IMG/VR virus record: IMGVR_UViG_3300009506_000012
Coordinates: 1 to 64,000 of that record
DNA: 64,000 nucleotides
Origin: a virus
Direction: 5' to 3' (one strand)
The first letter of the stretch is position 1, and each line of letters begins with the position of its first letter. Shown piece by piece: positions 486 through 53,709 of this stretch. The notes under the pieces are model-generated. The model worked only from the letters and a program-made list of their open reading frames with translations, was not told the origin of the DNA and did not search any database. A program made the translations under genes and the position numbers.

Positions 486-502
486 AGTTACTCCATTTCA
501 GA

Positions 503-566: not shown

Positions 567-568
567 GT

Positions 569-597
569 ATTATATTACAGTGTGGTAGTAGTGTCAA
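569..597 (-). promoter_or_regulatory. Consensus sigma70-type promoter
   Basis: Minus strand TTGACA-17 bp-TATAAT. Confidence 0.85.
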
Positions 598-1211
598 AGC
601 AATTTGTCCTGGATGGCAATATTCATCGAGAAATCTTTTTGAGTGTAAATGTCATTGTCCCGAATGGGTATCTGAATAACAGGATCCCATAAAGGATCGG
701 GTTTCCTGTAATGTAATATTCTATTGTGTTTGTCTTTGTTGATTTTGCGCCAACATTCATCAGCTTCAGCCAGGGTTGTAACATTGTGCTTCTTCAGAAT
801 TTCAGCACATCCACAAGTACACTCAAGATTCAACACCGAAGGTCTACCCATGACAACATGATGATCACACAATACTACAGGTCTGTCATTGGCAATACAC
901 TTGATGCCTTCATATCCAAAACGGAATGGATGATCATCAGGCAAAGCCACATGTTCAGGATAAAACAAAGGTAAATCTGGATGAGGTGATCTGTAATCCC
1001 TAAGTGAGATAACTCGATACACATCATATCCAGTTTCCCAGTTTTGTTTTTTTGTCAGTTCACTCAGTGCTGATCCAGTAGATACCCAATAGGCACCATG
1101 TCTAAAGACAGGTGCCTTTATTTTTACTTTGGCCCATATTCTGGGATTTTCGTAAGAATGAGTACCGTACCATTTGGTATCACCAATATAAGGAGCAAAT
1201 TCATCCAGCAT
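594..1211 (-). CDS. Hypothetical protein
   Basis: 205-aa ORF packed in minus-strand operon. Confidence 0.65.
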   Translation of the reverse strand: MLDEFAPYIGDTKWYGTHSYENPRIWAKVKIKAPVFRHGAYWVSTGSALSELTKKQNWETGYDVYRVISLRDYRSPHPDLPLFYPEHVALPDDHPFRFGYEGIKCIANDRPVVLCDHHVVMGRPSVLNLECTCGCAEILKKHNVTTLAEADECWRKINKDKHNRILHYRKPDPLWDPVIQIPIRDNDIYTQKDFSMNIAIQDKLL

Positions 1212-1213
1212 AG

Positions 1214-2833: not shown

Positions 2834-3036
2834 TTAGCCTTTACAATTTTCAGTGTTCCGTTGGCTACATCTCCCAGCATTTTTGCAATCATCACAGTCT
2901 TGCAGAAGCGGTCCCCCTGCCGCTTCATGTGATCCGGAATAGTGTAGCCAAGATCTTTAGCAGTATCTGCCAGTTCTTCGAATCTTTCTTGATACTGGTC
3001 ATCAGGAATAGGAATAACTACATGTAAGCCGGCCAT
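2830..3036 (-). CDS. Hypothetical protein
   Basis: 68-aa ORF, 4-bp overlap with downstream gene. Confidence 0.6.
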   Translation of the reverse strand: MAGLHVVIPIPDDQYQERFEELADTAKDLGYTIPDHMKRQGDRFCKTVMIAKMLGDVANGTLKIVKAK

Positions 3037-16919: not shown

Positions 16920-17795
16920 TTATCCACGATATGGACCATTCCAGCTTTCAAAGAATTCCGGATTGACCCAAATTTCAGTTGGCGAAGTATCACCCATCCG
17001 CCAGGACGTGACCAGGATTTGACCTTTGTTATTGGTGATATCATCCCATTTCTTGATTTCTTCAACAATACGCCGGCCAAGGAACACACGATAGTCACAG
17101 TGTAGAATTCCACAACGCAGATCAGGCTGATAATCGTAACCAGTCTTGAATTTTGTATCGACTTGTGCTGAAGCTGTTTCTTTCAGCCCAAAGATATAAC
17201 GACTGCGCAATTTAGGATCTGACAGTGTTTGATAAGCGTCATTGATTTGTTTGAAACGTTCTTCGGCATTGGGCTCTTTGCAAACGTCCGGATGCCACTG
17301 TCTTGCCATTCTTCGGAAACCTTTACGGATTTCGTCATCAGTTGCGGTTTTAGAAACACCCAGCAACCCGAATAATGTTTGCGTAGACGGATCCCCGGTT
17401 CTCTTTACAGTAGACCCAGAGAAAAAGGCTTGCAATACATCCTCATGAATCAGGATATCCCAGGCACTCGTTACATAATCCATACCAAACGAATGCCAAT
17501 CGTTCTTCTCCTTTGATGTGCCCAGATACTTGACCTTGATTGTACCGGTTTGCAGTTTTGGTTTTGACTTGATAACCGGGATTATTGGCGTTTCGTCATA
17601 ATGTTTTTTGATTAGCTTGGCCAACAAATCAGCATGTTTTGGATGTATAAGCCAATGTGGTTTATCCCAAGCACGATCGCTGCTCGGAATTTTCCATTTC
17701 AGATCATCCAGAAAGTCATGGTCGTAACGTGTCAGGCAAGCAAGCGCACCATCTTTGTCAGTTACAACACATGGTCCATCATAATATTTTCCCAT
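16920..17795 (-). CDS. J-domain (DnaJ-like) co-chaperone fusion protein
   Basis: LLGVSKTATDDEIRKGFRRMARQWHPDVCKEPNAEERFKQINDAYQTLSDP. Confidence 0.9.
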   Translation of the reverse strand: MGKYYDGPCVVTDKDGALACLTRYDHDFLDDLKWKIPSSDRAWDKPHWLIHPKHADLLAKLIKKHYDETPIIPVIKSKPKLQTGTIKVKYLGTSKEKNDWHSFGMDYVTSAWDILIHEDVLQAFFSGSTVKRTGDPSTQTLFGLLGVSKTATDDEIRKGFRRMARQWHPDVCKEPNAEERFKQINDAYQTLSDPKLRSRYIFGLKETASAQVDTKFKTGYDYQPDLRCGILHCDYRVFLGRRIVEEIKKWDDITNNKGQILVTSWRMGDTSPTEIWVNPEFFESWNGPYRG

Positions 17796-38640: not shown

Positions 38641-39336
38641 ATGACAACTAAATTCGCAATCATCGCAGGCCCCAGAACCGGAAGCAGTACGATCCAAGTC
38701 TTTCTTGAAGATCTGGGGGTTTTTGTTTATAGAGAACCATTTAGACCCGAGAAAAATATACATCCATATCCGGATACTCTCAATGAGATTTATTTCAAAA
38801 AGAACGCAGTTGGATTGAAGCATGTTTACACTCATGTCAACATTGAGGAAAATATCCGAATGGTTGAATGGCTTTATCAGAGAGGCATTACTACTGTTCT
38901 TCTGACGCGCAGGAATAAATTTCACCAGGCGGTCAGTCTTTTGATTGCCAAAAAACTGAATATCTGGGCAGTCAAACCTGATGTCATGGCGGCGCTTGAA
39001 TACAGGAATGTTGAAAGTTTTGAAATCTCGATCAGCGAGATTGAAAAGTTTATTGAATATGCTGAAACGATTGAAAGCGCTATTATGGGTATCCATATTC
39101 CCGACTATCAGATTTTTCAGACATTGTATTATGAAGCCTATTTCAATCAGGACTCTGCCAGGGCATTGACCAATGCAAGTCAGCTTGTTCGGGCGCTGGG
39201 TATCACAGCACCGGATTACATCGCTCCAATGATCCAACAGCATTTTGCGCCAGGAAGAAAACAGAACACCGAAGCTATCTATAGATTGATTTCTAATCGT
39301 GCTGAAATTGAAGAACATTTCGGAGCAAAATTATGA
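38641..39336 (+). CDS. PAPS-dependent sulfotransferase (Stf0-like)
   Basis: 5'-PSB loop AGPRTGSS, 3'-PB LTRRNKFHQAVS, YYE. Confidence 0.85.
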   Translation: MTTKFAIIAGPRTGSSTIQVFLEDLGVFVYREPFRPEKNIHPYPDTLNEIYFKKNAVGLKHVYTHVNIEENIRMVEWLYQRGITTVLLTRRNKFHQAVSLLIAKKLNIWAVKPDVMAALEYRNVESFEISISEIEKFIEYAETIESAIMGIHIPDYQIFQTLYYEAYFNQDSARALTNASQLVRALGITAPDYIAPMIQQHFAPGRKQNTEAIYRLISNRAEIEEHFGAKL

Positions 39337-39899
39337 CAGACAAGGTTATTGTCGATCTTGGAGGAGAGGGGCATTACCAAAATGGCACCGTAACGGTCAA
39401 CATCAATCCCGAATCAGGTAGCGACATCATATGTGATATCACGGCGCGTGGCCAGGAGCTGCACAGATACTTTCCTTATGGGAGTGTGGACATGTTTACC
39501 TGTATCCATACTCTTGAACATCTTGACCCGGCTGATGTTCCTGAAAGTCTGCTTTACTGGAAATCCATTCTGAAAGATGGAGGCCGGTTATTGGTTATCG
39601 TTCCGGACCTGAAGCAGTTATGGCAGGATGTAATGAATGAAATTGTTTCCGAAGATGTTGCAATCGCAATCACATTTCGTAATAATTTCAATGGAAAATT
39701 TGAATACTGGGACACCCATAAATGGGGCTGGACACGTAAAACTTTGCGCCGGGATATGGCATCCTGTGGTTTCAAAGTCATTGATCCTGAACGACCATTT
39801 TCGAAAGATTACATCTTCGATGATTACAGCTTTAGCTACACCGGTGATGTGCATCATTATGTTATTCCAAATTTGCGAGTGATGGGGTTGAACAAATGA
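39333..39899 (+). CDS. Class I SAM-dependent methyltransferase
   Basis: VDLGGEG, HTLEHL, LKDGGRLLVIVPD. Confidence 0.85.
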   Translation: MTDKVIVDLGGEGHYQNGTVTVNINPESGSDIICDITARGQELHRYFPYGSVDMFTCIHTLEHLDPADVPESLLYWKSILKDGGRLLVIVPDLKQLWQDVMNEIVSEDVAIAITFRNNFNGKFEYWDTHKWGWTRKTLRRDMASCGFKVIDPERPFSKDYIFDDYSFSYTGDVHHYVIPNLRVMGLNK

Positions 39900-40663
39900 A
39901 TGAATATCTTGAGAAGTTTCACCTGCAATATTTTCTGGAACACAAAAGAGAGAATCGCTATTGGTGGTTTTTGAGGAATCAGTTTATGCCACCTGTGTAT
40001 ACTACCTTGGATGAACCTGAATTCTTATTGCTGATGGAGTGGTTTCGAGAAACAGACAAGAGAGGTGTTGCCGGGGAATGTTCTGTGCCTCTCATCTCTG
40101 CTTTGCTTGGATTTATCGCCGGGTCCGGGATAGATGCAGTTGTACAGCTGGGTCATGCTTACGGATATTCCAGTCTGCTTATGGGCTGGATGCTTCGCAG
40201 AATGGGGAAAAAACATGCACTATTTTCAATCGATATCAATCCGGATGCAACTGCTTTTGCCCAACACTATATTGACAAGGCTGACCTCAATGAAGTTGTT
40301 GCGCTCCGTGTTGGCAATAGTGCTGACCCAAAGATGGTAGATCGTGCCAGGCAGTATTTTGGAAAAGAACCACAAATGATCTTCATTGACAGCAGTCATC
40401 AATACAAACATACACTGAATGAATTACGGCTTTATTACAATGCGCTTCCCAAGAATGGGATTATCTTTCTGCATGATATCTCTCGTTTTGCAACCAGGTT
40501 TGATAAAACAGGAAAGGGGGGAGTCATGAAGGCGGTCTGCGAGTTTGTTGAAACCAATCTTACTGAATCCGGTCTGTTCAATCGGCATATCGAAGGTAGC
40601 GACAGGGACGCGCCTTTGATTTTGTTGGATGGGTGTGGTCTGGGAGTGATACAGAAGTTATGA
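39896..40663 (+). CDS. Class I SAM-dependent methyltransferase (Methyltransf_24-like)
   Basis: VVQLGHAYGYS, SIDIN, IFIDSSHQY, GIIFLHD. Confidence 0.85.
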   Translation: MNEYLEKFHLQYFLEHKRENRYWWFLRNQFMPPVYTTLDEPEFLLLMEWFRETDKRGVAGECSVPLISALLGFIAGSGIDAVVQLGHAYGYSSLLMGWMLRRMGKKHALFSIDINPDATAFAQHYIDKADLNEVVALRVGNSADPKMVDRARQYFGKEPQMIFIDSSHQYKHTLNELRLYYNALPKNGIIFLHDISRFATRFDKTGKGGVMKAVCEFVETNLTESGLFNRHIEGSDRDAPLILLDGCGLGVIQKL

Positions 40664-42813
40664 ACAGTTTCGATTGTTTTGATACTCTGATTGGTCGAAC
40701 TTGCGTTGATCCTGTCAATATTTTCGAAATGGTTGGAAACGAGATTAGGGATCCGGATTTTGTCAAAAAACGGATTGCCGCAGAAAGATTCTTTCAGCGC
40801 AAAAAGGCTCCTTATACACTTGATACTATTTATAAACAGCTTGGCCAACCAGAGCTGGCTGAAATTGAATTCGGCTTCGAGCTTAAGAGTACATTCAAAA
40901 TAAAACGCTATGCAAAAATGCTTCGGGAAGATGACATTATTATTAGTGACATGTACCTGACTGAAGATCAGGTACGCTTACTTCTCGAGAAAGCCGGCAT
41001 TCATTTCGGCGGGAAGATATTTGTTAGCAATTATGGAAAGTTTTCTGGAAACATTTGGAGAACGGTCAAAGAGCAGAGTCACAAGATCGAATTTCACCAT
41101 GGGGATAATTCTTTCACAGACTTTGAAAGTCCAAGAAAACACGGTATTCGTGCAATCAGGGTCACTGACACAAAACTGAACAAGATCGAAAAGCTGTATG
41201 CCGATACGCTTCCGGAACTGGGTGCCTGGGTGCGCAACAATCGGCTTCGGTATATCGTGGACGAGCGCAAAGAATTCTTGACGTTTATGCAAAATCAGTA
41301 CAACATGCCGCTGTTGTGGAGTATCTGTCAGGAACTTGATCACTATCACAATGTGTATGATTTATTATTTATGTCCAGAGATACCCAGCTTCTGCACCGC
41401 ATGTACACGACCCTGGTTCCGGACGCGAGAGCTGAATATATCTATATCAGCCGAGATACTTTGCGAGGTGACAGTCAGTCTTATTTCGAATATTTGAATT
41501 CGAAGTTAACAAACAGATCTATACTGGTTGACATGGCATCCTCTTGTGGATCTTTGAAAGAATCTCTACCTCATCTTCAGGTAAAAGAGCCCAATGTGTT
41601 TACAGCTGTTTTTTTACCTGTGCCGTTCAAGGTCGATCTTGGCCCAATCCATTGTTTTGCGATGACAACCAATACCCAGATACAAATCAACAATACCTAT
41701 TTGGAGATGTTGAATTATGCAGACCATCTTCATGTGGCTGATGTTGTTGACGGAAAACCTGTATTCGATCTTCCTGGTGAATATGACATGGAAAAGGTCA
41801 AAGCTTACCATCGTGCTTTCAACCTGATGCTTGAAAATATTCCCAACCGTATAGTTGATGCAAAACCAGTATTCTTCCATGCACTAGCTGAAATCCAGAA
41901 GAACAAAGACAGAATCGGCAAAGAGTTTCCGAATCATGTTCCTATCGAAATCAAGCATAAAAAAACCATAAAGCAGGAACGCGCCAAAGACAATGTGATT
42001 GTGATCGGAGCTATCGCTAATTATTCCTGGACAAACATAGAACCATGGTGGAAATCTTTGAAGGCAACCGGTTTCGATGGGGATATACATATGCTGTGCT
42101 ACAACATTGGAGGCCAGTCAATTCGGTACATGGAACGTAGAGGCATTCAAACACATGTCAGAAAGTTGACCGGGAAACAGATTGTGATTGATCGCTTTCG
42201 TGACCTGGCTACGCTTCTGGATGATATCGATCCGGATACCTGGATTGTTTTTCCGGATGTTGGGGATATCGTATTTCAGTACAACCCGAGACACTACCTC
42301 GAATCTGTATCAAAAGATATTGTGGTGACGCATGAAGGTGTTCTTTTCAGCGGAAACAAGTGGATGCTGAATAACCTCTATGAGAGCTTTCCAAAATACG
42401 CTGAAGGTCTGAAGGATAAGTTCTTCTTCAATGCTGGCTCCATAGCTGCTAAAGCTGGAATACTTTCGCAAATGTCAGAACACATCTACAAACTATGCTT
42501 GGAAAATCAGAACGCCACCAGTCACGACCAGACCGCCATGAACATCCTGCTTCACAATAACCCTGTTTATCGAAAGAAAACATTATTTTTGAGTCCCAAT
42601 GATCCATGGTGTTTTTGCGGAGCTTCAAGTATATTTGCACGACCCGAAGATGCCAAGAATTATTTGAGCGATCCGGTTACAGTTCAGAACGGAATTTGCT
42701 ATTCGCGCCCTAATGTAAAGACCTGCATGTTTCATCACTACACACGAAACAAAAATATTGCCAGGCAGGTGATAACCCAGGTCAATCGCAGATTTGTAAA
42801 TTCAAGACGGTAA
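40660..42813 (+). CDS. HAD phosphatase / phosphoribosyltransferase-like / GT-A glycosyltransferase fusion
   Basis: SFDCFDTL, ISDMYL, HHGDN...D (HAD); FMSRD, LVDMASSCGS; C-terminal FPDVGDIVFQYNP, FNAG, HDQ, HHY; start at ATGA overlap 40660. Confidence 0.8.
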   Translation: MNSFDCFDTLIGRTCVDPVNIFEMVGNEIRDPDFVKKRIAAERFFQRKKAPYTLDTIYKQLGQPELAEIEFGFELKSTFKIKRYAKMLREDDIIISDMYLTEDQVRLLLEKAGIHFGGKIFVSNYGKFSGNIWRTVKEQSHKIEFHHGDNSFTDFESPRKHGIRAIRVTDTKLNKIEKLYADTLPELGAWVRNNRLRYIVDERKEFLTFMQNQYNMPLLWSICQELDHYHNVYDLLFMSRDTQLLHRMYTTLVPDARAEYIYISRDTLRGDSQSYFEYLNSKLTNRSILVDMASSCGSLKESLPHLQVKEPNVFTAVFLPVPFKVDLGPIHCFAMTTNTQIQINNTYLEMLNYADHLHVADVVDGKPVFDLPGEYDMEKVKAYHRAFNLMLENIPNRIVDAKPVFFHALAEIQKNKDRIGKEFPNHVPIEIKHKKTIKQERAKDNVIVIGAIANYSWTNIEPWWKSLKATGFDGDIHMLCYNIGGQSIRYMERRGIQTHVRKLTGKQIVIDRFRDLATLLDDIDPDTWIVFPDVGDIVFQYNPRHYLESVSKDIVVTHEGVLFSGNKWMLNNLYESFPKYAEGLKDKFFFNAGSIAAKAGILSQMSEHIYKLCLENQNATSHDQTAMNILLHNNPVYRKKTLFLSPNDPWCFCGASSIFARPEDAKNYLSDPVTVQNGICYSRPNVKTCMFHHYTRNKNIARQVITQVNRRFVNSRR

Positions 42814-42814
42814 T

Positions 42815-42831
42815 GCTCCACATTGTGGAGC
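42815..42831. promoter_or_regulatory. GCTCCAC-N-GTGGAGC palindrome, copy 6
   Basis: GCTCCACATTGTGGAGC just after a stop codon. Confidence 0.7.
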
Positions 42832-42839
42832 TGATTAGC

Positions 42840-43907
42840 ATGAGCGCCTACAATCCTCCAAGACTTGTTTCCAAAGCATACGATAGACCTGTTGACATAC
42901 TGGCTACCAGGCCGCATTTTGTTGACCATATCGCTCCTGTATGGAGGCACCTAGAAAATCGAGGTGGCTTTTATGTTCCTGAAGTATTGTTAGATTATGC
43001 TAAAACCAAAGTACCTGAAGCCGTAGGGGTAAAGCCAGTTGGCAGAAGCGATAAGCTGAATATCAGGCCTCCCGAAAAAAATGTGTACTTTACCTGCGCT
43101 TATGGGGATTTAGAGAAAGGCATGATTACTGACCTGAAACGGGTTTTTATCTTTATGGAACACGGAGTCGGGTTAGTGTTTCCGGGAAATCCTCACTATG
43201 CCGGGAGTGTTGGCCTTCGAAGGCGTGTTCATTTCTTTCTTGCGCCAAATCAGAATATTCATGATAAGACCTGGACCACTTTTCCAGAAGCACCGCAAGC
43301 TATTGTTGGCACCCCAAAGATGGATAATGTTCCAACAGATATGCCGATCAACCGGGATGACCCGTTGATTATTATCTCATTTCACTGGGATGGAAGGAAG
43401 GTGGCCAGGGAAGCGGCGAACGCATATCCACATTTCAGAGAGATTCTTCCGGAAATTGCAAAACGATATCACTTGGCCGGCCATGCTCATCCACGTATCG
43501 CAAACTACTTCGAAAGAGTGTATAATGAATTAGGCATTGAGTTCATTCGTGATTTTGATGAAGTCATGCGCAGAGGGGACCTTTATCTAAATGATGCCAG
43601 TTCAACAGCATATGAATTCGGCGTCACTGGGAAACCAGTCATCTTACTTAACTCGCCCGGTTACCGGCGTAACATAAATTTTGGAATCCGATTTTGGCAA
43701 TACACAGATTGGGCTATTCAGGTTGATGAACCTGGCCAGCTCATTTCTGCTATAGAACAAACACTACATAAACCCTCACATGAACAGAAACAGAAACAGA
43801 TGGTAGCAGACCTCTACCCGTACCATGGGCAGAGTGCAAAGCGTGCTGCTGATCAAATAAACAGATTTCTGAACATGCGAGGAACCAATGCCATACAAGA
43901 TACCTGA
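42840..43907 (+). CDS. TagF-like CDP-polyol phosphotransferase / GT-B transferase
   Basis: MEHG, VGTPKMD, HAHP, DLYLNDASSTAYEFGVTGKPVI parallel TagF motifs; start 42813 or 42840. Confidence 0.75.
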   Translation: MSAYNPPRLVSKAYDRPVDILATRPHFVDHIAPVWRHLENRGGFYVPEVLLDYAKTKVPEAVGVKPVGRSDKLNIRPPEKNVYFTCAYGDLEKGMITDLKRVFIFMEHGVGLVFPGNPHYAGSVGLRRRVHFFLAPNQNIHDKTWTTFPEAPQAIVGTPKMDNVPTDMPINRDDPLIIISFHWDGRKVAREAANAYPHFREILPEIAKRYHLAGHAHPRIANYFERVYNELGIEFIRDFDEVMRRGDLYLNDASSTAYEFGVTGKPVILLNSPGYRRNINFGIRFWQYTDWAIQVDEPGQLISAIEQTLHKPSHEQKQKQMVADLYPYHGQSAKRAADQINRFLNMRGTNAIQDT

Positions 43908-44388
43908 TGTTGTTGAAACCGAATTCAGACTCGAGGAATTAGATTCCAGAGAGAATATTCCTGATGAAGAAGCCACAATGATTATGGTCAAGACTGCTTC
44001 AGTGGCTGAAAATTCAAAACGATCCCAACTGTTTTCAAAATACGTGCAGGAAATTCCAAAAGATGATGCAGAACCAGAACGCATTATTTATAACTTCCCA
44101 CTGTATACGCTTATGCAGAAGGAAACCTTTCTGACCCTGGTAGGGTGCAATATCCAATTCCCAACTGGAAAGAGTGATAATGAAGGTAATCCGGAGCTGA
44201 AGCCTTTGTTTAGATTCCGTAAGACTCCCCGTGGAAACGAACTGAATATGAGTGAATTGGAATTCAATAAAGCCTGGGGGATGCTTGACGATGATGTTGC
44301 CGCCGAGATCCATTCCAAAGTTTTAGAAGTCAATCCACACTGGATATTCCAGAATGTCGGAGGTAACACGGACCTGGGGGAAGGCTAG
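43888..44388 (+). CDS. Tail assembly chaperone (G-like)
   Basis: Upstream of tape measure; ends at slippery GGGGGAA. Confidence 0.75.
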   Translation: MPYKIPDVVETEFRLEELDSRENIPDEEATMIMVKTASVAENSKRSQLFSKYVQEIPKDDAEPERIIYNFPLYTLMQKETFLTLVGCNIQFPTGKSDNEGNPELKPLFRFRKTPRGNELNMSELEFNKAWGMLDDDVAAEIHSKVLEVNPHWIFQNVGGNTDLGEG

Positions 44389-44672
44389 TATCCGCAGAGC
44401 TACAAGGTCTAAAGGCTGCTTTGTGGGATTACTTTGGCCAAGCAAATGAACGAGCAGAAGGTATAAAGGTAACAGAAGAAGAACGTGTAGACAAACCAAA
44501 AGCACTGACCAGATACGAACAAATACAAGAACTGCACATTCCATATGTTGATGGTGGCCTTATGGATCAACCTTACTTATGGATGCAGCAGCATGGCGTC
44601 ATCAAAAGTTTCCTCGTTGAATGGAACGCCACGCAAAAAGCATTAGCACAACTTTCAGCGCAAGGACAGTGA
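44376..44672 (+). CDS. Tail assembly chaperone -1 frameshift extension (T-like)
   Basis: G GGG GAA at 44376-44382; -1 frame open to 44672; GGLMDQP motif. Confidence 0.75.
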   Translation, partial: GGRLVSAELQGLKAALWDYFGQANERAEGIKVTEEERVDKPKALTRYEQIQELHIPYVDGGLMDQPYLWMQQHGVIKSFLVEWNATQKALAQLSAQGQ

Positions 44673-44673
44673 T

Positions 44674-47600
44674 ATGCCCTACACGGTTCCAAATCCTACA
44701 ACCGATCAATTCAGGACTTATCTTGAAAACCTTCTGAAAACATTTGATAAAACCTATCAGGTTCAATATGTGCCTCCACAGAAGGATGCCGGCAATAGCG
44801 ATATTGAAGGAACGGATTTTTTCAACATCACAAAAAAATCCTCCAACAATGCTGGTGTTCTCAAGACTAACCTCAAGATAAACTTGGGACATGAGTCTCG
44901 TTTTAGAACGACCTACGGTGGACAGACTCCCCAGCAATTTGAACGTGCCCCGGAAATCCTAACGGGTTCCGGGCAAAGTGCTTATACCGTTGGTGGCTCC
45001 TGGGCTTCAGTGGCCACGGTTGTCGATCAGCCTGGCGGGAAATCTGATATTGATATCAGGCATGATTTGCGCTCTCCAATAGAAAGCCTGGCCACTTTGA
45101 TCAGCACTGGTTTTTCAGATGTCGAAAAAGAAAACCGGTTCAATCCCGGAGCTGTTACGGGTGATGTAACCAGCAAGATTATGAATCTGCTATCCACAGG
45201 TTCCAGTGAACACAGTGATTTTGCGGTCCCTGCCGGCGCTTTGATGACAACAACTGGAATTGATGTAGATGCTGTTCGCAGAAAAGCCGCTCAAGCCATT
45301 CAGCTCGTAAATAGCTACGACCCTACTGGCACCGCAGAGGTAGGGCAGTTTGCACAACGAGAGGCGATAGCCAAGGCGCGTGAAAACATGATGCGTCTTA
45401 GCATTCCTGTACCTGGCCGGGGAGGAAAGCCAATTGATTCCTTTTTCAAAGAAGCTGGGTATGCTCCCGATCGCGCACAGGCTGACCGCCTTGTCGCATT
45501 ATCACAGGCTTCTCGGGTTGTCCGTGATGCTCTTGGTCAGCCAACAGATACTGAAATCTATCTGCCTTCTCCGAAGATAGCCAAACACATGACTATTTTG
45601 AGTTCTGGTCGTCAACAAGCATCTTTACTTGGTGAAGATTATCAACCTATTGCGCCAAAGATGATCACAGGACGTGTACCAACATCCGGATACAGAATGA
45701 CAACCGCTGATGTTGGAGGCAGAATTCCTGAAAAGTCTCTAGTGCTTGGAACAATGTTTTCGCCTCAATATCCTATTCCGGGTGCAGGAATGTATTTTCC
45801 GGAAACTGTAGATGCCAATGTGAAATCAGGTGGCTACAAGGCTACTCAAAGTTTTGGAGTAACTCGGAATGTCAAGGATCTTCTTACCGATAAAACCCAG
45901 CTTAATTTACAGCAACAAACCGGAAATGTAATCCCATCTTCTCTGAATTATGACGTTTTCTCAATGCGTACTAAAGAGATGAAAAAGTCTGATCCGGATA
46001 TTATGTTACAGCAACGAGCAGGCACACATTCTTTTGCCGTTGGAAATCAGCAATTGCGTATTCCCAGATATTACACGGCTGAAGGAATCGGAGCCAGCTA
46101 CGATAAGCAGATGCTTCGCAAGAAACAACTTCAAGAGGTGACCCCGGCAGAGATTGAAGCACTTTCAAAACGCCTGGGCGTGAATGTTGTTCCAGACGCA
46201 ACCATTGAAGAAGTCCTCTTAGAGATGGAAGGCCAAAAACTAGTTGGTGGCAAGTTTGCCATTGAGGGTGTCAAATCAGATATCACCCCTTATACCGGCA
46301 CTCCAACTTTTTCAGCTGGTGGCAAGGAAAGAGCCATCAGCGCAGTAACCTGGGAATCCAAGCAAATGCTGGAAACCTTTACAGGTAGCCTTGGGGCTAT
46401 TTCTCCTACAGCCCAATATGGAATCCTGAATGAATATCAAAAATCGCTTACGGCTTCAGGGGATACGGATATGGCCGCGAACGTTCGTGCCGTCATCAAA
46501 CAGCAAAAGGCATTGAGGAGAGAGGATCCTACAGCCAGGCTTGATCTTCAAGCAGCTGCAAATCAAATAGCAGGAACTGCAACGGATGCACCTGTACATG
46601 GATTGTCCAGAGATATCTTTCAGCGTGTATTTCTGGGAGGCTCTAAGGTACAAGATTTTGCAGGTATGAATGAGGCAGACCTATCTGCGTTTGCCCAATC
46701 TGATCTGAATGTTCGCAATCTGAAAAAATTCGGTATGGGATGGGTATCTCCCGAAATGAGCAATCCCATAACAACCATGTGGGACAGAAGCCAGGTCGAG
46801 GCTTTGTTCACTGGATACCGTCAGGGAAGTAATGTACCTGAAGCTGAATTACGTGCGCGGTTTGGGCGTCAATATGGTTTTGATTTTTCAAATGCAAAAG
46901 GTGACCAGATTGCACAGACGTTCAGGCCTAGTGGGTTTTACATGCCAGCGATTGCCGGTCCATCTGTGGAGTTTTCCGGAGGCGGCACACTTGGTTCCGA
47001 AGAAACGCAAATCCTTTCAGCGATTGCACCAGGCTTTGCAAACCGTCTGGGCGCTAATGCAGAAGGACTGACCCGGCGTGATCCTGTGCGTTGGGCTCAA
47101 CGTCAGATCGCACATATCGCCGCTACTGAAATGGATCGGGGCGAGGGTAAGTACACCAAGATTGATAATGCGCTTCAGATTGGCACAGAACAGGCGACCA
47201 AAATGTGGGCAGATCCGGAGTTTCGTGCCTTGCTTGGAGATGAGGCCGGTGATTTAGCTGGAATGAAACGCTTTGAAGAAAAGCTGAAAAGTTTCTTTCC
47301 GGGCTCAGAGGATTTGAACCGCAGGCCTATTACCTTTGAAGCTGCCCCAGGTCGTTACCTTCCATCAACCAGGGCAATTTCTGCTTTAGCTACTGAAAGT
47401 TCGGCAACTATGCGAGGCGGCATAAGAACAGGTGAGGATGTTACACGTTCTTGGAATATGTTCCAGAGCGCTTTTTCCCAGGCTGTCACTTCGCAGATCA
47501 ACGAGGACCCGACTGGTTTGCTTGAGGGTACCCAGAATCTAACATCGCATTTTATGAGACAGTTTGGCCTCCCTGAAGGCGGCAAGCGTGATGTTATCAA

Positions 47601-50600
47601 GAAAATGATGGGAAGCGAAATCGGTGTTGCTTCAGGTCACTATGCTTTCTGGAATGAACTTAAACAAAACGAGGTTTATGCCAGTAAAGAGAAATACATG
47701 GAAGCAATCCGTAAAGAGCTTTCAGCCCAGGGACTTGATACCCCCGAACGACCATTATCCAATCAAGAAGTAGAACAGGTCTACAACATGATTGCAGGTC
47801 TGCCTTCAGAGGTTGGAACTGCGCCTAATGATGTGCGAACCAAAGGGTTACCCGGTGTGGTGGCTCGCTGGCCTATTGTAGCCGGTGAGGAATCCATGCT
47901 GGGAATGCGCTTTGTCACCCCGGAGCATCTACAGCGTTCGGGCCGGCAGGCACCTGTTGAGGCCGGTATGGGAAACCTTCACTGGCGAATCGGTGTTGGG
48001 CCGTCCAGTATTATGCAGGGTGACTTCGATCTTGACTACATGCTTGGTTTGATGGGGCTGACCGGAACAAGAGATGAAAGTGGCAAGCTGGATGTGAGTT
48101 TCGCAGCCTATAATAGAAACGGCAGGCTCGGAAAAGATATAAGTGCGCTTGTCAATCGAACACAGCAAATGAGCTATGAGACTATTCAGAGGATCCTTTA
48201 TCCATCTAAAAATGCTCAACAGCAATTCGACCCAATTTTCCAGGCATTCCAGGATAGAGATAAAACAGGTACGCTTGGGCCAATGCAACAAGTGGCAAGA
48301 AATCTGATTGGCGAACAGTTTGGAAAATCAGGCTGGCAGCCTTACGGCCATCTGTTAGACAGCGTGGCTACATATGGGGGAGCCAAAATGATGATGGGTA
48401 CTTCTTATAACTTCACTCGTGCGCTCGAAGCAGCAGCCGGTGTAGGCGGCTGGTCAACTGAGGGAATCATGCAGGGACGTAGAGGCAGGGCACAGATCTA
48501 TCAACCTCACCTTGATCTTCAGACATCCCAGGCTGCACCGATGGTTCGTATGTATCAGTCATCCTTCTTGGCCGAGGGCAAGGGTGGCAAACTGGGATTG
48601 GGCTTTGGTACCGATGTGGCTGGGTATGGATTGCAGTTCATGAAAAATGCCGGCAAGATCATGAATCTGAGCGAGGATAATACCAGTCGCATTATTACCA
48701 TGCTGGCAGGTAGTGCCATTACTCCTACAACAGCCGGTGAGCTTCCATCTCCGGAAATGCTTGGGTATGCTTTCTCTCCGGAAGAAGGTAGGGTAAATAC
48801 TGCTCCTGAAGATATGCAGACTTCACTGGACCTGTTCACAAAATGGAAAAATGCAGAACGCCACCCAGAGAATGCTGCCGAATACAATAAACGCGCAGAT
48901 TACGAGGAGGCTTACATGAGAACAACCGGCCTCGCTGACGTACTTCAGGCACCCTATAACATGGAGGGCACCACAGATGAAAGAGCTACTGCCATGCAAC
49001 ACACTCTTTCCCAGTGGATGAAATATAACTATTACGGCACGAAAGAAGGCCGTGAAACAGCCTTGCAGGGCAACTTCATTACAGCCATGTTCTCGAAGTC
49101 TTATGCAAAGAAACAGGAAAAGGAACCAGGATGGACACCTCCACTCGACTTCAGGACTTCGAAACTCGGTTCACGGATGATGGGCAAAGCCAATATCCAG
49201 GCACCTCTTTTCAATATGATGAAAGGCGGTTTATCTTCCGGACGCACCTTGCGCCGTCTGCTGAACTCCATAGGACAGACATCCGGTCTGACAAGTTGGG
49301 CAACCGGCAATCTTCAGGCTCTTGGTTTTGGAACGGACGAGACTATCTTCCCGCAATCACAGGTATCCGCTTCGGGTAACGTGCGATCTACCGGGCCGAA
49401 CGGTGAACCGATTATCGTCAGTCCAGAAATGGAACGTCTATGGGCTAAAGACTGGGCACGTATGAAAAACAAAGGTCTCTACGAGGGCAACTTTGGTCAA
49501 TACATAGAAGAACGCAAGGCAGACCTGGCTAGGCTAAACACATCTTTTGCAGGAAAGCCTGTGGATCAAGCAAGAGTAAATCCGGAAACAAAAGACATCG
49601 AAGGTGGCTTCGAGAATATTCCCATGGTGGATTTCGATGCCATCAATAATGCACAACCAGAACCAGAACAAACGCAAACTACTACTACACAACCCGAACA
49701 AACTACTGCAAAACCACAACAAAAAACGCCAAAACCACAACAGCCCAGTAGTACCCAAAAACCGCAACCTGGTGGTACACAGCCTCCCAATAAACAACCA
49801 CCCGGAGGAGGAACGTCTACTCCAGTAAGCCCCACCACCCCACCCTCTGGTACTCCCCCACCCAGAGCGCCGCAGGATGCTTCTCAGAACACCAAGTTTC
49901 CTGGTCTACCTGCCAACAGTATTCCGACTGAACAGGCACAAGAGTACATCGGCAAGTTTAGAGAGTACATGCCAAATATCACACAAGCAGCTGGCGCAAT
50001 TCAGTCAGAACTTGGCGCTATTACTGGGGCAACCCCTGGACCAATGGGTGTGTACGAAGCTATGGCGCAACTTCCTGAAGAACAGCGCATGGAAATCCTG
50101 AAAAAGTATCAGGAACCGGCGCGTCAGGCTCAGGAGCTGATGGGACTTGCGAAAAAGGTTTATCCAAATCTTGAGAAGAACGTGATCGACCCGGCTGTAC
50201 TCAGGCAGTTCGGTATGTCCGGAGCTGATCTGCGCATCATGTCTGAAGATACTCTGCTCACCAACAATCCAGTTGGGCAGAACCTGGTTGACCTTGGTGG
50301 TCTGACGGGTGTTCCGGGGTTTGAAACCTTGAAAAAGCGTGGAGGTACCACAGCCGCATCCGGTCAGGTTAGTGCAAATATTGCTCAGATCCATTTCCAG
50401 GAATTGGGCGAAATTACAAAGAAGCTAACTGAGAATTTTGAGAACCTATCAAAAGGTCAAATCAAACATAGCGATGCCCTGAAGGAAGAAACCAAACTCC
50501 TTGAACAGCGTGAACAGGCCAGGCAAAAACAAGCGTTATCAGAGAAAGCTGCTCCACTAGTGGAGCAAGGCTTACTCGAGCCTGAAATCACGGCCACCAA

Positions 50601-53600
50601 ACGAGGAAAACCGCAAATCTCGTACAAGCGTACTGACAAACCAATTCCTCAAGAAATGTATAAGGCTTCCCAGGCTTATGATGAACAGCTTCTGAAAACT
50701 GAAGGTCTTGGTGGGACAGAAGGCCAGGATAGATTGATCGGTGGTGTACGTCCGAGTTTCATGCGCCGGGTGCTGGGTGGCTTTGGACTCATGTACATGC
50801 GTTCATTAGGCAATATCATTACAGGTGGGTTAGGGTATGGCCAACAAGAGCGCACAAACATGGAGCAAGTATTCGGAGCCTCAGCTGGTGGAATGGCTGG
50901 CATTGGATATACTCCTCAGAATCAGGCGCAAGTGCTTCAGAATCGGATGGCGCTGGGTGGCCAGGCTTATAACCCTATGCTTGGATTGCAGATGGCAAGA
51001 GCGCAATCTCCACTACTTCAGGATATTTCAGCAGCTGGTGGTGCTGGACTTGGTACTTATGCCCTGTTACAACAGGCTGCTCTTTGGGGTGGTGAAGGAT
51101 CCATATTCCAACAAATAGCCAATGGCGGTTTATCTGCTTTTGGTGGTCGATTGAATATCGGTGCAGGGACTGTGGTTGGCGGTGCAGTTGGCGCTTCGTT
51201 GCTGGCGCAAGGATATGCCAAGTCTCAAGATACTGAAGGCCTTGCTTACCGATGGGGTACTGGGAATGCCTTCTCAAAGATCACAGGCTTGACCGATACT
51301 CTTGGTCGAATTGGAGCTGGCCAGGCATTTACAGGTGATATCTATCAACGCGGTGCTACATATCGAATGCTTCAGGAAAACCTGCAACGTCCTGAAGGAA
51401 TGACCACTCAAGGTGTTATGGATTGGGTTACAGAGCAGGGTCTTGGTGGTCAGAAGTATGTTGATGCCGGGACTCCGGAAGGTCAGGCATGGTATGGCCA
51501 GGCAACACAAAAACTATTGCTTGACCAAAACCCCGAATTTGCTCCTGAAACAATTGCGGCAACTTATCAGTTCATGCAACGGAACCAGATGAACCTGAAA
51601 GACTTTGGGACAATTGCATCCCAATTTCAGACAGGGTATACAGAAGAATCTGTTTCATCGATGCTCAAGGGTTTTGGAATGAGCATGGGGCAACAACTTT
51701 CGCAAACTGAGAATTGGGCTGGCGGGAATGCGCCTACCAATTTAGGTGTTGCTTACATGCAGACGCTTGGCATGATCAACCAAAACAACGCGCCGCAATT
51801 CCAGGCCGGTCTTGAGTATATGGGTCAGCTTGGATTTGCCCCGCAAATAATGCAACAACAGCAAGGATTGAGCAATCAAGAAATGGTCAACCAGGTCTTA
51901 CAGTGGGGAGGCCAGGGAGCTATGCAGGGTGGTTTGTACGCACAACGAGCGCAGGCCTATCAGCAAGGTGCCTTTATGGGTTGGAATGTTCAGGCTCCGG
52001 AAGCACCTCCTGAAAATCTGACACCCGAGCAGTTCGGTCAGGGGATGTATGAGTCCCAGAAGCAATCCCAGAAGATGATGCAAATCGAGCAGATTGCTAA
52101 CCAGTTCTCATCCAATTTCGGATGGAGTGGTGAACAGCGTCAGGGTTTCCTGGGTGACATGGAAAGTTTCTACAAGTCCGGACGCTTCAATGCTTATTAT
52201 GCTGATGTTCTGGGTGGCGCTTCCCAGATGAATCCTTATGCCATGACTCAGCTGTATACCCAACAACAGCCAGGCGGGGCACTGGCCGGTATTGGACCAC
52301 AGATACAACCATGGCAGGTCACCAAAGATATTTGGGGGCCAGGTGCGGGAGAGTTGGCAGGTAAAGCCGTGAACCTGCCAGCTTTCACCGTGTCCGGAGG
52401 AACACACCCACAATTCCAGGCATTGTCTGAAATGCTTGGACCTGATTTCATGCAACAATTGCTTGGCACCGATGCCGGGAATGCCTTTGTCAATGGGTAT
52501 CAGATGGAAGGCACGAACATGCCGGCTGTGGCTGGTCTTATGGGATATCAGATGCAACAAGCTGATAAACAGTGGGATTTGCGTCAAGCACAAATGGGTA
52601 TTTCAGATCGAGGCAATCAGCTTCAGATGGAATATCTTCCCAAGATATGGAATATTCAAGATCAAATGCGTGACCTTGGATATCGTCATCAGATGTTCCA
52701 GTTTGGTCAGCAAGAAAAACAGATTGCCATGCAAGCCGGTCAATTCTATGAAAACATAGGCCTCAGCGAGTATCAGTCCCAGCTTCAGCGTGGATGGACC
52801 CAACAGGATTGGGCATTCAATTCCGAAACCAGAGCGATGCAACACGGATGGCGAGTAGAGGACTTCGAGGAACAACGCCGCTTTATGACTGGTCGTCAGC
52901 GCCGGTTGGCTGAACGCCAAATGGAACGCGAGAACATCACCTATGGTCGTGAGGGTGAACAGATCGACCGTCAGCAAGAACGGCAAAAAGAACTTTGGGC
53001 ACTTGAGGATGAGCGCTTCCAGATGCAGAAGGACCATTATGAAGAACAGCGTCAGATGCAGGAAGAATCTCTCAAGGAAAACAAGAAGTATTATGAGCAG
53101 AACTTTGAACTTCAGAAAAAGCTAACTGATCTTCAGCGCGAATTGACCATGAAGCAGCTGGAACTTCAGAAAGAATCTCTTGAACTTCAGAAACAAATTG
53201 CTGAAGAACAACACAAGATGCAACAAGTACAGCAGGCTATCCAGTTACTAATGCTTCAAAATCAGACCAAGCTAGAGGACAGCCAGCAAATCTTTGGTGG
53301 CATCAGTGAGGAGATGCGCACCCTGTTCGAGGATTGGGCTGATGTTATTGGCAACGGCGGTTCGGGCTCCGGAGGTTATACCAATTACACTGTATACGGA
53401 TCCGGAGGTGCTAGCGGTACTATCAATAGTGGTGTCCGTCCGGAAGGAAGTAGCGGCGGCATGCAGATGGCCGAGGGTGGCGACTTCTGGGTGGGAGAAA
53501 ACGGTCCGGAACTGCTCAGTGTTGGTATGGATGGTCCAACTACCAGGATGCGAGGACGCATTCAACCTACCAAATACGATCCTTGGGGTTCTACAGCGAT

Positions 53601-53709
53601 AGATTCAAAACCCTCTTTCAAAGAAACCAAAGAGCAGACCATTGTTGTGCAGATTGGCAACGAGGAAATCAAGCGCTTTGTTGTCAGAACAGTAGAGGAT
53701 GACTTGTAA
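44674..53709 (+). CDS. Tape measure protein with N-terminal two-barrel RNA polymerase-like region
   Basis: After chaperones; C-terminal coiled coil and MAEGG...VGENGPEL tape-measure motif; GGKFAIEGVK (K527, K534), RWP (R1065), DFDLD (1117-1121); P/Q/T linker near aa 1660-1740. Confidence 0.8.
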   Translation: MPYTVPNPTTDQFRTYLENLLKTFDKTYQVQYVPPQKDAGNSDIEGTDFFNITKKSSNNAGVLKTNLKINLGHESRFRTTYGGQTPQQFERAPEILTGSGQSAYTVGGSWASVATVVDQPGGKSDIDIRHDLRSPIESLATLISTGFSDVEKENRFNPGAVTGDVTSKIMNLLSTGSSEHSDFAVPAGALMTTTGIDVDAVRRKAAQAIQLVNSYDPTGTAEVGQFAQREAIAKARENMMRLSIPVPGRGGKPIDSFFKEAGYAPDRAQADRLVALSQASRVVRDALGQPTDTEIYLPSPKIAKHMTILSSGRQQASLLGEDYQPIAPKMITGRVPTSGYRMTTADVGGRIPEKSLVLGTMFSPQYPIPGAGMYFPETVDANVKSGGYKATQSFGVTRNVKDLLTDKTQLNLQQQTGNVIPSSLNYDVFSMRTKEMKKSDPDIMLQQRAGTHSFAVGNQQLRIPRYYTAEGIGASYDKQMLRKKQLQEVTPAEIEALSKRLGVNVVPDATIEEVLLEMEGQKLVGGKFAIEGVKSDITPYTGTPTFSAGGKERAISAVTWESKQMLETFTGSLGAISPTAQYGILNEYQKSLTASGDTDMAANVRAVIKQQKALRREDPTARLDLQAAANQIAGTATDAPVHGLSRDIFQRVFLGGSKVQDFAGMNEADLSAFAQSDLNVRNLKKFGMGWVSPEMSNPITTMWDRSQVEALFTGYRQGSNVPEAELRARFGRQYGFDFSNAKGDQIAQTFRPSGFYMPAIAGPSVEFSGGGTLGSEETQILSAIAPGFANRLGANAEGLTRRDPVRWAQRQIAHIAATEMDRGEGKYTKIDNALQIGTEQATKMWADPEFRALLGDEAGDLAGMKRFEEKLKSFFPGSEDLNRRPITFEAAPGRYLPSTRAISALATESSATMRGGIRTGEDVTRSWNMFQSAFSQAVTSQINEDPTGLLEGTQNLTSHFMRQFGLPEGGKRDVIKKMMGSEIGVASGHYAFWNELKQNEVYASKEKYMEAIRKELSAQGLDTPERPLSNQEVEQVYNMIAGLPSEVGTAPNDVRTKGLPGVVARWPIVAGEESMLGMRFVTPEHLQRSGRQAPVEAGMGNLHWRIGVGPSSIMQGDFDLDYMLGLMGLTGTRDESGKLDVSFAAYNRNGRLGKDISALVNRTQQMSYETIQRILYPSKNAQQQFDPIFQAFQDRDKTGTLGPMQQVARNLIGEQFGKSGWQPYGHLLDSVATYGGAKMMMGTSYNFTRALEAAAGVGGWSTEGIMQGRRGRAQIYQPHLDLQTSQAAPMVRMYQSSFLAEGKGGKLGLGFGTDVAGYGLQFMKNAGKIMNLSEDNTSRIITMLAGSAITPTTAGELPSPEMLGYAFSPEEGRVNTAPEDMQTSLDLFTKWKNAERHPENAAEYNKRADYEEAYMRTTGLADVLQAPYNMEGTTDERATAMQHTLSQWMKYNYYGTKEGRETALQGNFITAMFSKSYAKKQEKEPGWTPPLDFRTSKLGSRMMGKANIQAPLFNMMKGGLSSGRTLRRLLNSIGQTSGLTSWATGNLQALGFGTDETIFPQSQVSASGNVRSTGPNGEPIIVSPEMERLWAKDWARMKNKGLYEGNFGQYIEERKADLARLNTSFAGKPVDQARVNPETKDIEGGFENIPMVDFDAINNAQPEPEQTQTTTTQPEQTTAKPQQKTPKPQQPSSTQKPQPGGTQPPNKQPPGGGTSTPVSPTTPPSGTPPPRAPQDASQNTKFPGLPANSIPTEQAQEYIGKFREYMPNITQAAGAIQSELGAITGATPGPMGVYEAMAQLPEEQRMEILKKYQEPARQAQELMGLAKKVYPNLEKNVIDPAVLRQFGMSGADLRIMSEDTLLTNNPVGQNLVDLGGLTGVPGFETLKKRGGTTAASGQVSANIAQIHFQELGEITKKLTENFENLSKGQIKHSDALKEETKLLEQREQARQKQALSEKAAPLVEQGLLEPEITATKRGKPQISYKRTDKPIPQEMYKASQAYDEQLLKTEGLGGTEGQDRLIGGVRPSFMRRVLGGFGLMYMRSLGNIITGGLGYGQQERTNMEQVFGASAGGMAGIGYTPQNQAQVLQNRMALGGQAYNPMLGLQMARAQSPLLQDISAAGGAGLGTYALLQQAALWGGEGSIFQQIANGGLSAFGGRLNIGAGTVVGGAVGASLLAQGYAKSQDTEGLAYRWGTGNAFSKITGLTDTLGRIGAGQAFTGDIYQRGATYRMLQENLQRPEGMTTQGVMDWVTEQGLGGQKYVDAGTPEGQAWYGQATQKLLLDQNPEFAPETIAATYQFMQRNQMNLKDFGTIASQFQTGYTEESVSSMLKGFGMSMGQQLSQTENWAGGNAPTNLGVAYMQTLGMINQNNAPQFQAGLEYMGQLGFAPQIMQQQQGLSNQEMVNQVLQWGGQGAMQGGLYAQRAQAYQQGAFMGWNVQAPEAPPENLTPEQFGQGMYESQKQSQKMMQIEQIANQFSSNFGWSGEQRQGFLGDMESFYKSGRFNAYYADVLGGASQMNPYAMTQLYTQQQPGGALAGIGPQIQPWQVTKDIWGPGAGELAGKAVNLPAFTVSGGTHPQFQALSEMLGPDFMQQLLGTDAGNAFVNGYQMEGTNMPAVAGLMGYQMQQADKQWDLRQAQMGISDRGNQLQMEYLPKIWNIQDQMRDLGYRHQMFQFGQQEKQIAMQAGQFYENIGLSEYQSQLQRGWTQQDWAFNSETRAMQHGWRVEDFEEQRRFMTGRQRRLAERQMERENITYGREGEQIDRQQERQKELWALEDERFQMQKDHYEEQRQMQEESLKENKKYYEQNFELQKKLTDLQRELTMKQLELQKESLELQKQIAEEQHKMQQVQQAIQLLMLQNQTKLEDSQQIFGGISEEMRTLFEDWADVIGNGGSGSGGYTNYTVYGSGGASGTINSGVRPEGSSGGMQMAEGGDFWVGENGPELLSVGMDGPTTRMRGRIQPTKYDPWGSTAIDSKPSFKETKEQTIVVQIGNEEIKRFVVRTVEDDL
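50550..50567. promoter_or_regulatory. GCTCCAC-N-GTGGAGC palindrome, copy 7 (intragenic)
   Basis: TGCTCCACTAGTGGAGCA identical to copy 3. Confidence 0.6.

Follow-up and report, generated by a model that had tools for sequence, protein, structure and literature searches.

The virus record IMGVR_UViG_3300009506_000012 of IMG/VR (82,163 bp, with direct terminal repeats and rated complete) carries in its first 64 kb, which are analysed here and called the window below, a giant gene that runs as one open frame from an ATG start (44674..53709, plus strand) and encodes 3011 amino acids. We propose that its product is a virion protein with two jobs. Residues ~300–1300 would form a single-chain, cell-type two-barrel DNA-dependent RNA polymerase, and the residues from ~1740 to the end, which follow a linker rich in proline, glutamine and threonine (P/Q/T), would act as the tape measure of the tail. 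Along the polymerase part, a flap and a barrel with the lysines K527 and K534 would be followed by a clamp-like part, a second barrel with R1065 and the aspartates D1117/D1119/D1121, and a candidate bridge helix. An earlier reading made from the letters and translations (the sequence-only reading) had already suggested a divergent single-chain two-barrel RNA polymerase on a tape measure, and predicted folds and conserved motifs now support this idea. Taken as a whole, with injection and early transcription drawn up by analogy with the protein gp96 of the Thermus phage P23-45, the mechanism is given an estimated probability of about 0.7.

Polymerase-like folds and motifs in the N-terminal half

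Structures were predicted with AlphaFold from shallow alignments (13–14 sequences) for residues 451–1650 (model 1) and 281–830 (model 2). Model 2 (13 sequences, no templates) reached a mean predicted local distance difference test score (pLDDT) of 77.8 and a predicted template modelling score (pTM) of 0.66, with low confidence for its beginning, residues 281–313 of the protein. Foldseek searches of this model against the PDB returned 123 matches at E ≤ 1e-3 (best 7.5e-7, probability 1.00), and all matches listed were RNA polymerase entries (bacterial chains C or I, AR9 7s00_C, phiKZ 7ogp_C). In VIA, a structure search independent of Foldseek that covers 48,161 representative chains, ranks 1–9 were all occupied by second-largest polymerase subunits (Z 8.6–5.5, 172–310 residues aligned). 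Examples are vaccinia virus 6rfl_B (Z 8.6, 261 residues), RNA polymerase I 4c2m_B (Z 8.3) and African swine fever virus (ASFV, Z 8.1), with AR9, Xanthomonas beta and phiKZ next, down to Z 5.5. When the Foldseek candidates were rescored by VIA, 46 chains stood at Z ≥ 8, the best at Z 9.2. Among the viral models of BFVD, 19 matched at E ≤ 1e-3; the best, at E 2.9e-6, was the RNA polymerase of a Pseudomonas phage of the phiKZ type, and the named matches were mainly polymerases of jumbo phages and giant viruses.

A flap domain is the mark of the multisubunit-type (beta/beta-prime) branch of polymerases. Isolated beta-flap domains appeared at VIA ranks 10–11 (3woe_A and 3tbi_B, Z 5.2, 91–93 residues), and in this alignment residues 106–243 of model 2, i.e., residues 386–523 of the protein, correspond to T. 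thermophilus beta 702–830 and E. coli beta 830–1057. The lysines K527 and K534 sit 4–11 residues past the flap-like domain, and K1065 and K1073 of E. coli beta sit 8–16 past flap residue 1057. Toward the end of the beta-like region, G769–771, E776 and E777 are invariant in a four-sequence alignment. The block GGGTLGSEE, to which they belong, shows the same order as GGQRFGEME of E. coli beta (at 1266), a correspondence by motif and order only. Altogether, model 2 and its fold matches support a predicted beta-like module with the lysine barrel at residues 309–772.

Model 1 (pLDDT 70.2) covers the beta-prime-like part. All 50 of its listed Foldseek matches in the PDB were RNA polymerase entries. 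In VIA, ranks 1–13 of the 48,161 chains went to RNA polymerase chains of the largest-subunit type or to QDE-1 (AR9, Sulfolobus, Mycobacterium, plastid, RNA polymerases I–IV, phiKZ, vaccinia, ASFV and QDE-1), followed below rank 13 by unrelated helical proteins; their Z values of 6.7–5.7 lie in a range (below 8) that, by the caution of the search tool itself, can reflect a common arrangement. The barrel at residues 980–1171 (530–721 of model 1) aligned with E. coli beta-prime 344–500 (Z 6.8, root-mean-square deviation (rmsd) 4.3 Å, 126 residues) and with residues 356–534 of the largest subunit of RNA polymerase II (Z 6.7, rmsd 2.8 Å, 104 residues, 17% identity). The designed double-psi beta-barrel (DPBB) protein 7dww matched model 1 at Z 4.8. 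The E. coli motifs NRAPTLH (beta-prime 424) and NADFDGD (458) fall within the range aligned to this barrel, and the offsets of R1065 and D1117 in the aligned stretch agree with those of the two motifs to within ~20 residues. Over a longer range, residues 373–750 of model 1 matched beta-prime 20–517, AR9 and phiKZ (Z 6.5–6.9, rmsd 8–9 Å, 220–270 residues), residues 823–980 of the protein aligning loosely to the N-terminal part of beta-prime at the same rmsd of 8–9 Å.

Further downstream, model 1 contains a helix of 33 residues (775–807 of the model, 1225–1257 of the protein), in which Y1234, G1236, A1237, K1238, M1241, G1242, Y1245, F1247, T1248, R1249 and L1251 are invariant in the four-sequence alignment. 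It resembles the SGYLTRR bridge-helix block of E. coli (793), lies outside all structural alignments and may represent the bridge helix.

The strength of the case for the beta-prime-like half derives from polymerases alone topping the list, from invariant residues inside the matched barrel and from the well-supported beta-like half directly upstream. Two DPBB folds had been expected by the sequence-only reading, and a beta-like and then a beta-prime-like barrel region are indeed predicted, in this order. The same reading took the N-terminal ~1650 residues as globular; the model is confident to residue ~1550, and residues 1553–1650 fall below pLDDT 50. We consider it very likely that a two-barrel polymerase homologue with all its motifs intact makes up the N-terminal part. 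A DNA polymerase of the PolD type was rejected as a candidate, as no such chain occurs among the matches listed and the fold matches of the beta-like half are specific to RNA polymerases.

The family to which the protein belongs is rare. A word-indexed search yielded three relatives, and a full HMMER search of 1.84 billion cluster representatives yielded 12 at E ≤ 3e-85, ten of which are 3391–4095 residues long and one of which (P0012) is a fragment of 560 residues, plus a weak thirteenth match (E 8e-4). IMG/VR contains three related loci, two of them nearly identical, and tblastn with residues 1–1650 found no match among 50,697 phage records. In the 14-row family alignment (28–48% identity to the window protein), K-x6-K is conserved in 13 of the 13 covering rows and RxP in all 14. 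DxDxD, in the form D[FYQE]D[LAWY]D, is conserved in 13/13 covering rows as well; P0012 stops short of this site and is therefore not counted there. The sequence-only reading had named conservation of DFDLD in homologues as a point on which it could fail, and every homologue covering the site keeps DxDxD. A DxDxD by itself carries little weight: of the 68 open reading frames (ORFs) of at least 150 residues in this genome, nine have one by chance, and none of these resembles the family. What counts is therefore conservation together with fold. That the fusion is an artefact of assembly or gene calling was rejected, since all 12 full-length members in the protein cluster collections (3011–4095 residues, DxDxD at residues 865–1175) keep it.

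Another property common to the family is the absence of cysteine, of which none occurs in the 44,976 residues of the 14 family proteins (the window protein and 13 relatives); 13 other ORFs of the same phage average 0.87%. P23-45 gp96 (5002 residues) also has none, compared with 7 cysteines in E. coli beta and 15 in beta-prime. The cysteine clusters of beta-prime bind zinc. A 958-residue protein of the late operon (genome 66266–69142, plus strand), which has no Pfam or PHROG match, is likewise cysteine-free, unlike its neighbours.

Several results speak against a polymerase. Pfam and PHROGs gave no match for the whole protein, for four pieces of it or for any of the 14 family members. The models RNA_pol_Rpb1_2 (PF00623) and RNA_pol_Rpb2_6 (PF00562), which match 14 of 14 control genomes, found nothing in this genome at E ≤ 10. 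Searches of PDB sequences with phmmer and the family profile returned no polymerase and nothing beyond noise from coiled coils and designed repeats; in hhalign, the family stayed below a probability of 1 with E. coli beta, with E. coli beta-prime and with gp96 1–1200, and the ESM Atlas held no usable match for residues 1–1650. Because the sequence searches came back blank, we class the protein as one that would work and fold like a fused beta/beta-prime polymerase, and not as a member of a Pfam family or of the gp96 family. On the structural side, both models were built on only 13–14 sequences. The pTM of model 1 is only 0.37, a value at which the arrangement of domains is unreadable, and its DxDxD loop has a pLDDT below 50. 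Its Foldseek search against the PDB gave nothing at E ≤ 1e-3 (best E 9.3e-3), the beta-prime-like match is middling (Z 6.5–6.9), and bridge helix and trigger loop are without structural confirmation. Moreover, a chain without cysteine lacks the zinc sites of cellular beta-prime.

A sequence diverged past all profile methods, the loss of the zinc-binding cysteines and the unconfirmed bridge helix and trigger loop would also suit a polymerase-like region that is a catalytically dead relic, retained by the tape measure as a spacer or plug of structural use. This is very improbable, as the expected catalytic residues are kept in every member covering them at an overall identity of 28–48%, and residues 300–1300 are conserved as much as or more than most of the tape-measure part. 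In addition, gp96 has diverged just as far and has no cysteine either, and it is active nonetheless, according to the covered part of its description (PMC10770324).

The C-terminal half and the neighbouring tail genes

A G/GT-type pair of genes in –1 frames is the tail assembly chaperone arrangement that precedes tape measure genes. In the window and in three related loci (L004, L005 and L006), the genes for portal, capsid, connectors and tube are followed by a G-like ORF, a T-like ORF, the giant gene and two downstream genes. The portal (SPP1-type), the major capsid protein and the tail tube protein are all encoded upstream on the same strand. The G-like ORF, for which Pfam and PHROGs gave no match, shares 38–47% identity with the ORFs at the same position in the three related loci. 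Starting at 44367, an open –1 frame shares 22 nt with the end of G and stops 1 nt before the ATG of the giant gene. This –1 arrangement, together with TGGGGGAA at the end of G, was found in all three loci examined (window 43888–44672, L004 7878–8626, L006 7960–8759) and points to a programmed –1 frameshift between G and T. The sequence TGGGGGAA at the overlap is not a textbook slippery heptamer of the type X_XXY_YYZ. Between the tube gene and the conserved downstream genes there is no other long ORF. The two downstream proteins (1372 and 768 residues), putative distal tail proteins, matched nothing among the PDB sequences.

The C-terminal half itself has Gly-rich hydrophobic and coiled-coil parts. 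Within residues 2001–2200, glycine reaches 21 per 100 residues in two bins, hydropathy peaks at residues 2114–2182, and the exact pattern GGFGxMYxRS recurs in 7 of the 12 full-length members. The stretch at residues 2690–2870, with 39 charged residues per 100, is the best-conserved part of the entire protein (59% mean identity in the bin of residues 2701–2800). Searched by tblastn, the last 132 residues gave 12 weak matches (E 0.02–10, query residues 37–132), nine of them on annotated tape measure or tail proteins and three on a terminase; the best had an E value of 0.02 and 51.5% identity over 33 residues. The ESM Atlas clusters nearest to residues 1741–3011 (0.90–0.91) include TMP_2, TMP_3 and Tape_meas_lam_C, which serves as a lead only. 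The tape-measure function, also part of the sequence-only reading, is supported by synteny with the conserved G/GT frameshift pair and by the weak C-terminal similarity to annotated tape measures, and we regard it as likely for the C-terminal part.

Tape measures correspond to ~0.15 nm of tail per residue. At this value, a tail of ~450 nm is predicted if the whole chain measures and one of ~190 nm if only residues 1741–3011 do. Two relatives, P0003 and P0004, are longer by several hundred residues at the P/Q/T linker; counted between the polymerase and tape-measure parts (window residues ~1560 to ~1990), their insertions amount to ~700–1000 residues. The window protein, which is without these insertions, is the shortest full-length member.

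No tape-measure family model of Pfam or PHROGs matches the C-terminal part or any family member, which counts against the proposed function and would fit an ejected internal virion protein in the style of N4 or crAss-like phages, encoded in the tail block while another protein or a cleaved C-terminal fragment measures the tail. The linker at residues 1661–1740 and the variable insertions of the relatives could hold the cleavage site for such a protein, and a folded polymerase cannot occupy the lumen of the tube. We nevertheless judge this alternative decidedly unlikely: no second long ORF is available from the tube gene to the conserved downstream genes, the giant gene directly follows the conserved G/T pair in 3/3 loci examined, its C terminus is weakly similar to annotated tape measures and has the Gly-rich hydrophobic and coiled-coil parts, and the fusion is present in 12/12 full-length members.

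The features of the giant gene and of the chaperone pair are compiled in the table. The motifs GGKFAIEGVKSDI, VVARWP, QGDFDLD and VGENGPEL as well as the P/Q/T linker were each re-found where the sequence-only reading had placed them, the P/Q/T-rich stretch itself covering residues 1661–1734 (49654–49875).

Features of the fused polymerase/tape-measure gene and of the two ORFs upstream of it; positions refer to the window
Feature	Residues	Positions	Strand	Basis or remark
G-like ORF, putative tail assembly chaperone	166 in total	43888..44388	+	directly upstream of the giant gene
T-like ORF in –1 frame, candidate G/GT programmed frameshift		44367..44672	+	overlaps the end of G
Whole ORF, proposed RNA polymerase–linker–tape measure	1–3011	44674..53709	+	3011 residues, 0 cysteine
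Conserved N-terminal region	1–308	44674..45597	+	31–37% mean identity across the family
Predicted beta-like (second-largest-subunit-like) module with lysine barrel DPBB-B	309–772	45598..46989	+	model 2 and fold searches
Beta-flap-like domain	386–523	45829..46242	+	alignment to isolated flap domains
GGKFAIEGVKSDI with K527 and K534, candidate active-site lysines	525–537	46246..46284	+	K-x6-K conservation
GGGTLGSEE	769–777	46978..47004	+	resembles the GGQRFGEME block of E. coli beta
Predicted beta-prime-like module, clamp-like N-terminal part and metal-binding barrel	823–1200	47140..48273	+	fold matches of model 1
Predicted double-psi beta-barrel A	980–1171	47611..48186	+	alignments of model 1
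VVARWP with R1065-W-P1067 (RxP)	1062–1067	47866..47874 (RxP)	+	R1065 codon at 47866
QGDFDLD	1115–1121	48016..48036	+	52 residues from R1065 to D1117
D1117-F-D1119-L-D1121, candidate Mg-binding loop	1117–1121	48022..48036	+	DxDxD conservation
Long helix, candidate bridge helix, includes GGAKMMMGTSYNFTRALEAA	1225–1257	48346..48444	+	model 1, invariant residues
Conserved, mainly helical region (model 1)	1258–1552	48445..49329	+	25–45% identity across the family
P/Q/T-rich linker	1661–1740	49654..49893	+	composition per 100-residue bin
Putative tape-measure part	1741–3011	49894..53706	+	synteny
Gly-rich hydrophobic segments (GGFGLMYMRS; NIGAGTVVGGAVGASLLA)	2020–2182	50731..51219	+	hydropathy, composition
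Highly charged, Q-rich helical stretch	2690–2870	52741..53283	+	composition, conservation
VGENGPEL C-terminal motif	2940–2947	53491..53514	+	tblastn with the last 132 residues

Proposed delivery through the tail and comparison with known polymerases

In the proposed mechanism, the tail tube would be built around residues ~1740–3011, behind the P/Q/T linker, with the help of the upstream G/GT chaperones. At infection, the tape measure would leave the tail before the DNA does, and the polymerase end, which is free of cysteine and lies closest to the head, would follow it into the cell and fold there. The enzyme, possibly anchored at the entry pore, would then transcribe the first-entering genes without the host polymerase. 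The lack of cysteine would fit a chain that crosses the envelope in an extended state and folds afterwards, and, being common to gp96 and the present family, it could mark tail-delivered enzymes. It is the analogy with gp96 that leads us to propose that the protein is packaged in the virion, is ejected, is catalytically active and transcribes early genes. To be set against this mechanism is the size of the polymerase: once folded, a module of ~1300 residues should be too large for the tail tube, so that an unfolded or head-proximal state has to be assumed. Furthermore, the whole case is built on sequence and predicted structure.

The description of P23-45, as far as covered here, presents gp96 as a tape-measure-fused virion RNA polymerase that is active in vitro, is present in virions and transcribes pre-early genes from AT-rich promoters (PMC10770324). 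It has DFDGD at 779–783 and a flat, clamp-less structure (PDB 8H2M and 8H2N), groups with the second polymerase of P23-45, gp64, in a branch of single-subunit phage, plasmid and RNA interference enzymes, and has kin in P74-26, G20c and TSP4 (PMC10770324). With 5002 residues for an 800-nm tail (PMC10770324), P23-45 arrives at ~0.16 nm per residue, and hence the polymerase part may count towards tail length there.

Like gp96, the window protein combines an N-terminal two-barrel polymerase-like part with DxDxD and a C-terminal putative tape measure in one ORF, occupies the tape-measure slot of a long-tailed phage of ~82–84 kb and is free of cysteine. In contrast to these parallels, the two families have no detectable sequence similarity (hhalign against gp96 1–1200, probability 0.15), and DxDxD is found at 1117 instead of 779, ~340 residues further in. 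The window protein best matches multisubunit beta/beta-prime, with flap-like and clamp-like parts, and a Pfam scan found no metallopeptidase domain in it, another difference from P23-45. Nor was a gp64-like second polymerase recognized in the present genome, although such enzymes can escape detection. Chains titled P23-45 gp96, P23-45 gp64 or phi14:2 gp66 did not occur among the 50 matches listed per fold search, which excludes nothing.

The search for other polymerases was extended to the whole genome. A family-profile hmmsearch of all ORFs of at least 60 residues found no paralogue of the giant protein, and among the 30 large ORFs scanned neither a polymerase family nor a DNA polymerase was recognized, although such enzymes can be sequence-dark. 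With no other polymerase recognized, the phage must rely on host enzymes or on the giant protein for several tasks. This observation, as well as the presence of QDE-1 (7y7p_A) among the tied matches of model 1, would be compatible with an active two-barrel polymerase on the tape measure that has a job other than early mRNA synthesis, e.g., as a genome-pulling transcription motor, a primase-like replication enzyme or an RNA-templated polymerase of the QDE-1 kind. Such a job appears unlikely, because DNA-dependent multisubunit polymerases match the beta-like half and its flap far better than anything else does, and genome pulling and early transcription are not mutually exclusive. Moreover, the one characterized tape-measure fusion is a DNA-dependent transcriptase, according to the covered part of PMC10770324.

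An early-transcribing polymerase on a tape measure can further be compared with several other systems. The non-virion polymerases of AR9 and phiKZ (7s00, 7s01, 7ogp, 8que) are very diverged phage beta/beta-prime enzymes as well and are among the best fold matches of both halves. These enzymes, which come from jumbo phages with contractile tails, are made up of several polypeptides and have no tape measure attached, whereas the window protein has both halves in one chain and comes from an 82-kb phage. Single chains with both barrels are found in Neurospora QDE-1 and in the protein gp66 of phi14:2 (a crAss-like phage), the latter a virion polymerase fused to a large protein in the covered part of PMC10770324. 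QDE-1 (7y7p_A) is a tied match for the metal-binding barrel in model 1 (Z 6.3, 138 residues, rmsd 3.6 Å, 14% identity). Here, in contrast, the beta-like half matches cellular-type second-largest subunits, with no QDE-1 or gp66 among the 50 matches listed. Tape measures of the lambda gpH type with G/GT have the same gene order, the –1 pair upstream, Gly-rich hydrophobic and coiled-coil parts and a C-terminal motif of the GE-GPE type, and differ in that half of the present protein would be an enzyme and that no tape-measure family model matches it. The virion polymerase of phage N4 has a T7-like single-subunit fold and is capsid cargo, not a tail ruler. Its parallel to the enzyme proposed here is functional, as it travels in the particle and enters the cell by injection for the reading of early genes (named in PMC10770324).

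In the literature searched, the P23-45 group (Oshimavirus), a small set of Thermus phages, is the only published case of a tape-measure-fused polymerase. New here is the same strategy in a different, sequence-unrelated polymerase family. That a cellular-type beta/beta-prime polymerase (with a flap and a clamp-like part, without zinc sites and cysteines), maybe the only polymerase of the phage, was fused to a tape measure independently and by convergence is a tentative idea that we hold with more doubt than confidence. If true, an enzyme of the multisubunit type with a mass of ~150 kDa would have to pass the tail of a siphovirus in an unfolded state, regain its fold without help in the host and perhaps pull the genome in.

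The tape-measure-fused polymerase had looked like a curiosity of thermophile phages with 800-nm tails. The same design in a sequence-unrelated family and in a phage of ordinary size (82 kb) suggests that delivery by the tail ruler arose more than once, and this way of delivering a transcription enzyme may be common among uncultured phages. A compact, cysteine-free, single-chain polymerase of the cell type could also reveal the smallest size at which a beta/beta-prime core still works, and the way in which a polymerase survives passage through a tail.

Genome setting, source and minor observations

The terminal direct repeats of the genome are 144 bp long. Words of the sequence were found in three DNA runs of one marine-sediment study (word shares 1.00, 0.45 and 0.27), with no RNA run listed; the run with a share of 1.00 is labelled marine sediment metagenome and is a possible source of this DNA. 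The portal had no tblastn match among 50,697 phage records, which places the phage in a lineage without cultured relatives. Relatives of the giant protein were absent from 185,579 prokaryote species (one genome per species), hence there is no prophage that could point to a host, and no transfer RNA genes were found in the genome.

The tail tube gene is separated from the chaperone genes by a block of five ORFs (window 38641–43907). Weak Pfam matches in this block (E 0.001–0.002, below the cut-off) hint at a nucleotide-diphospho-sugar transferase and at a glycerophosphotransferase of the TagF type, and only two of the five ORFs have counterparts in the related loci. Elsewhere, the phage encodes a DnaJ-domain protein (window 16920–17795, minus strand, E 3.7e-22), a DUF4942 protein (window 1214–2833, minus strand) and an HD_5/HD-domain protein (L002 5480–6088, plus strand, E 5.6e-26).

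According to the covered part of PMC10770324, P23-45 carries a conserved motif of 26 nt as terminator for gp96. In the present genome, the palindrome CTCCAC-N2-4-GTGGAG occurs in ten copies, most of them extended to GCTCCAC...GTGGAGC. Seven copies are located in the window (9364, 14144, 18689, 20788, 23692, 42816 and 50552), one of these inside the polymerase/tape-measure gene, and three beyond it (67299, 72515 and 81526). The phage polymerase could use the copies as promoters or terminators, or as sites of processing. Seven of the ten lie in leftward gene blocks, where most are followed by an A-rich run on the minus strand (GGAGC-AAA) rather than by a T run.

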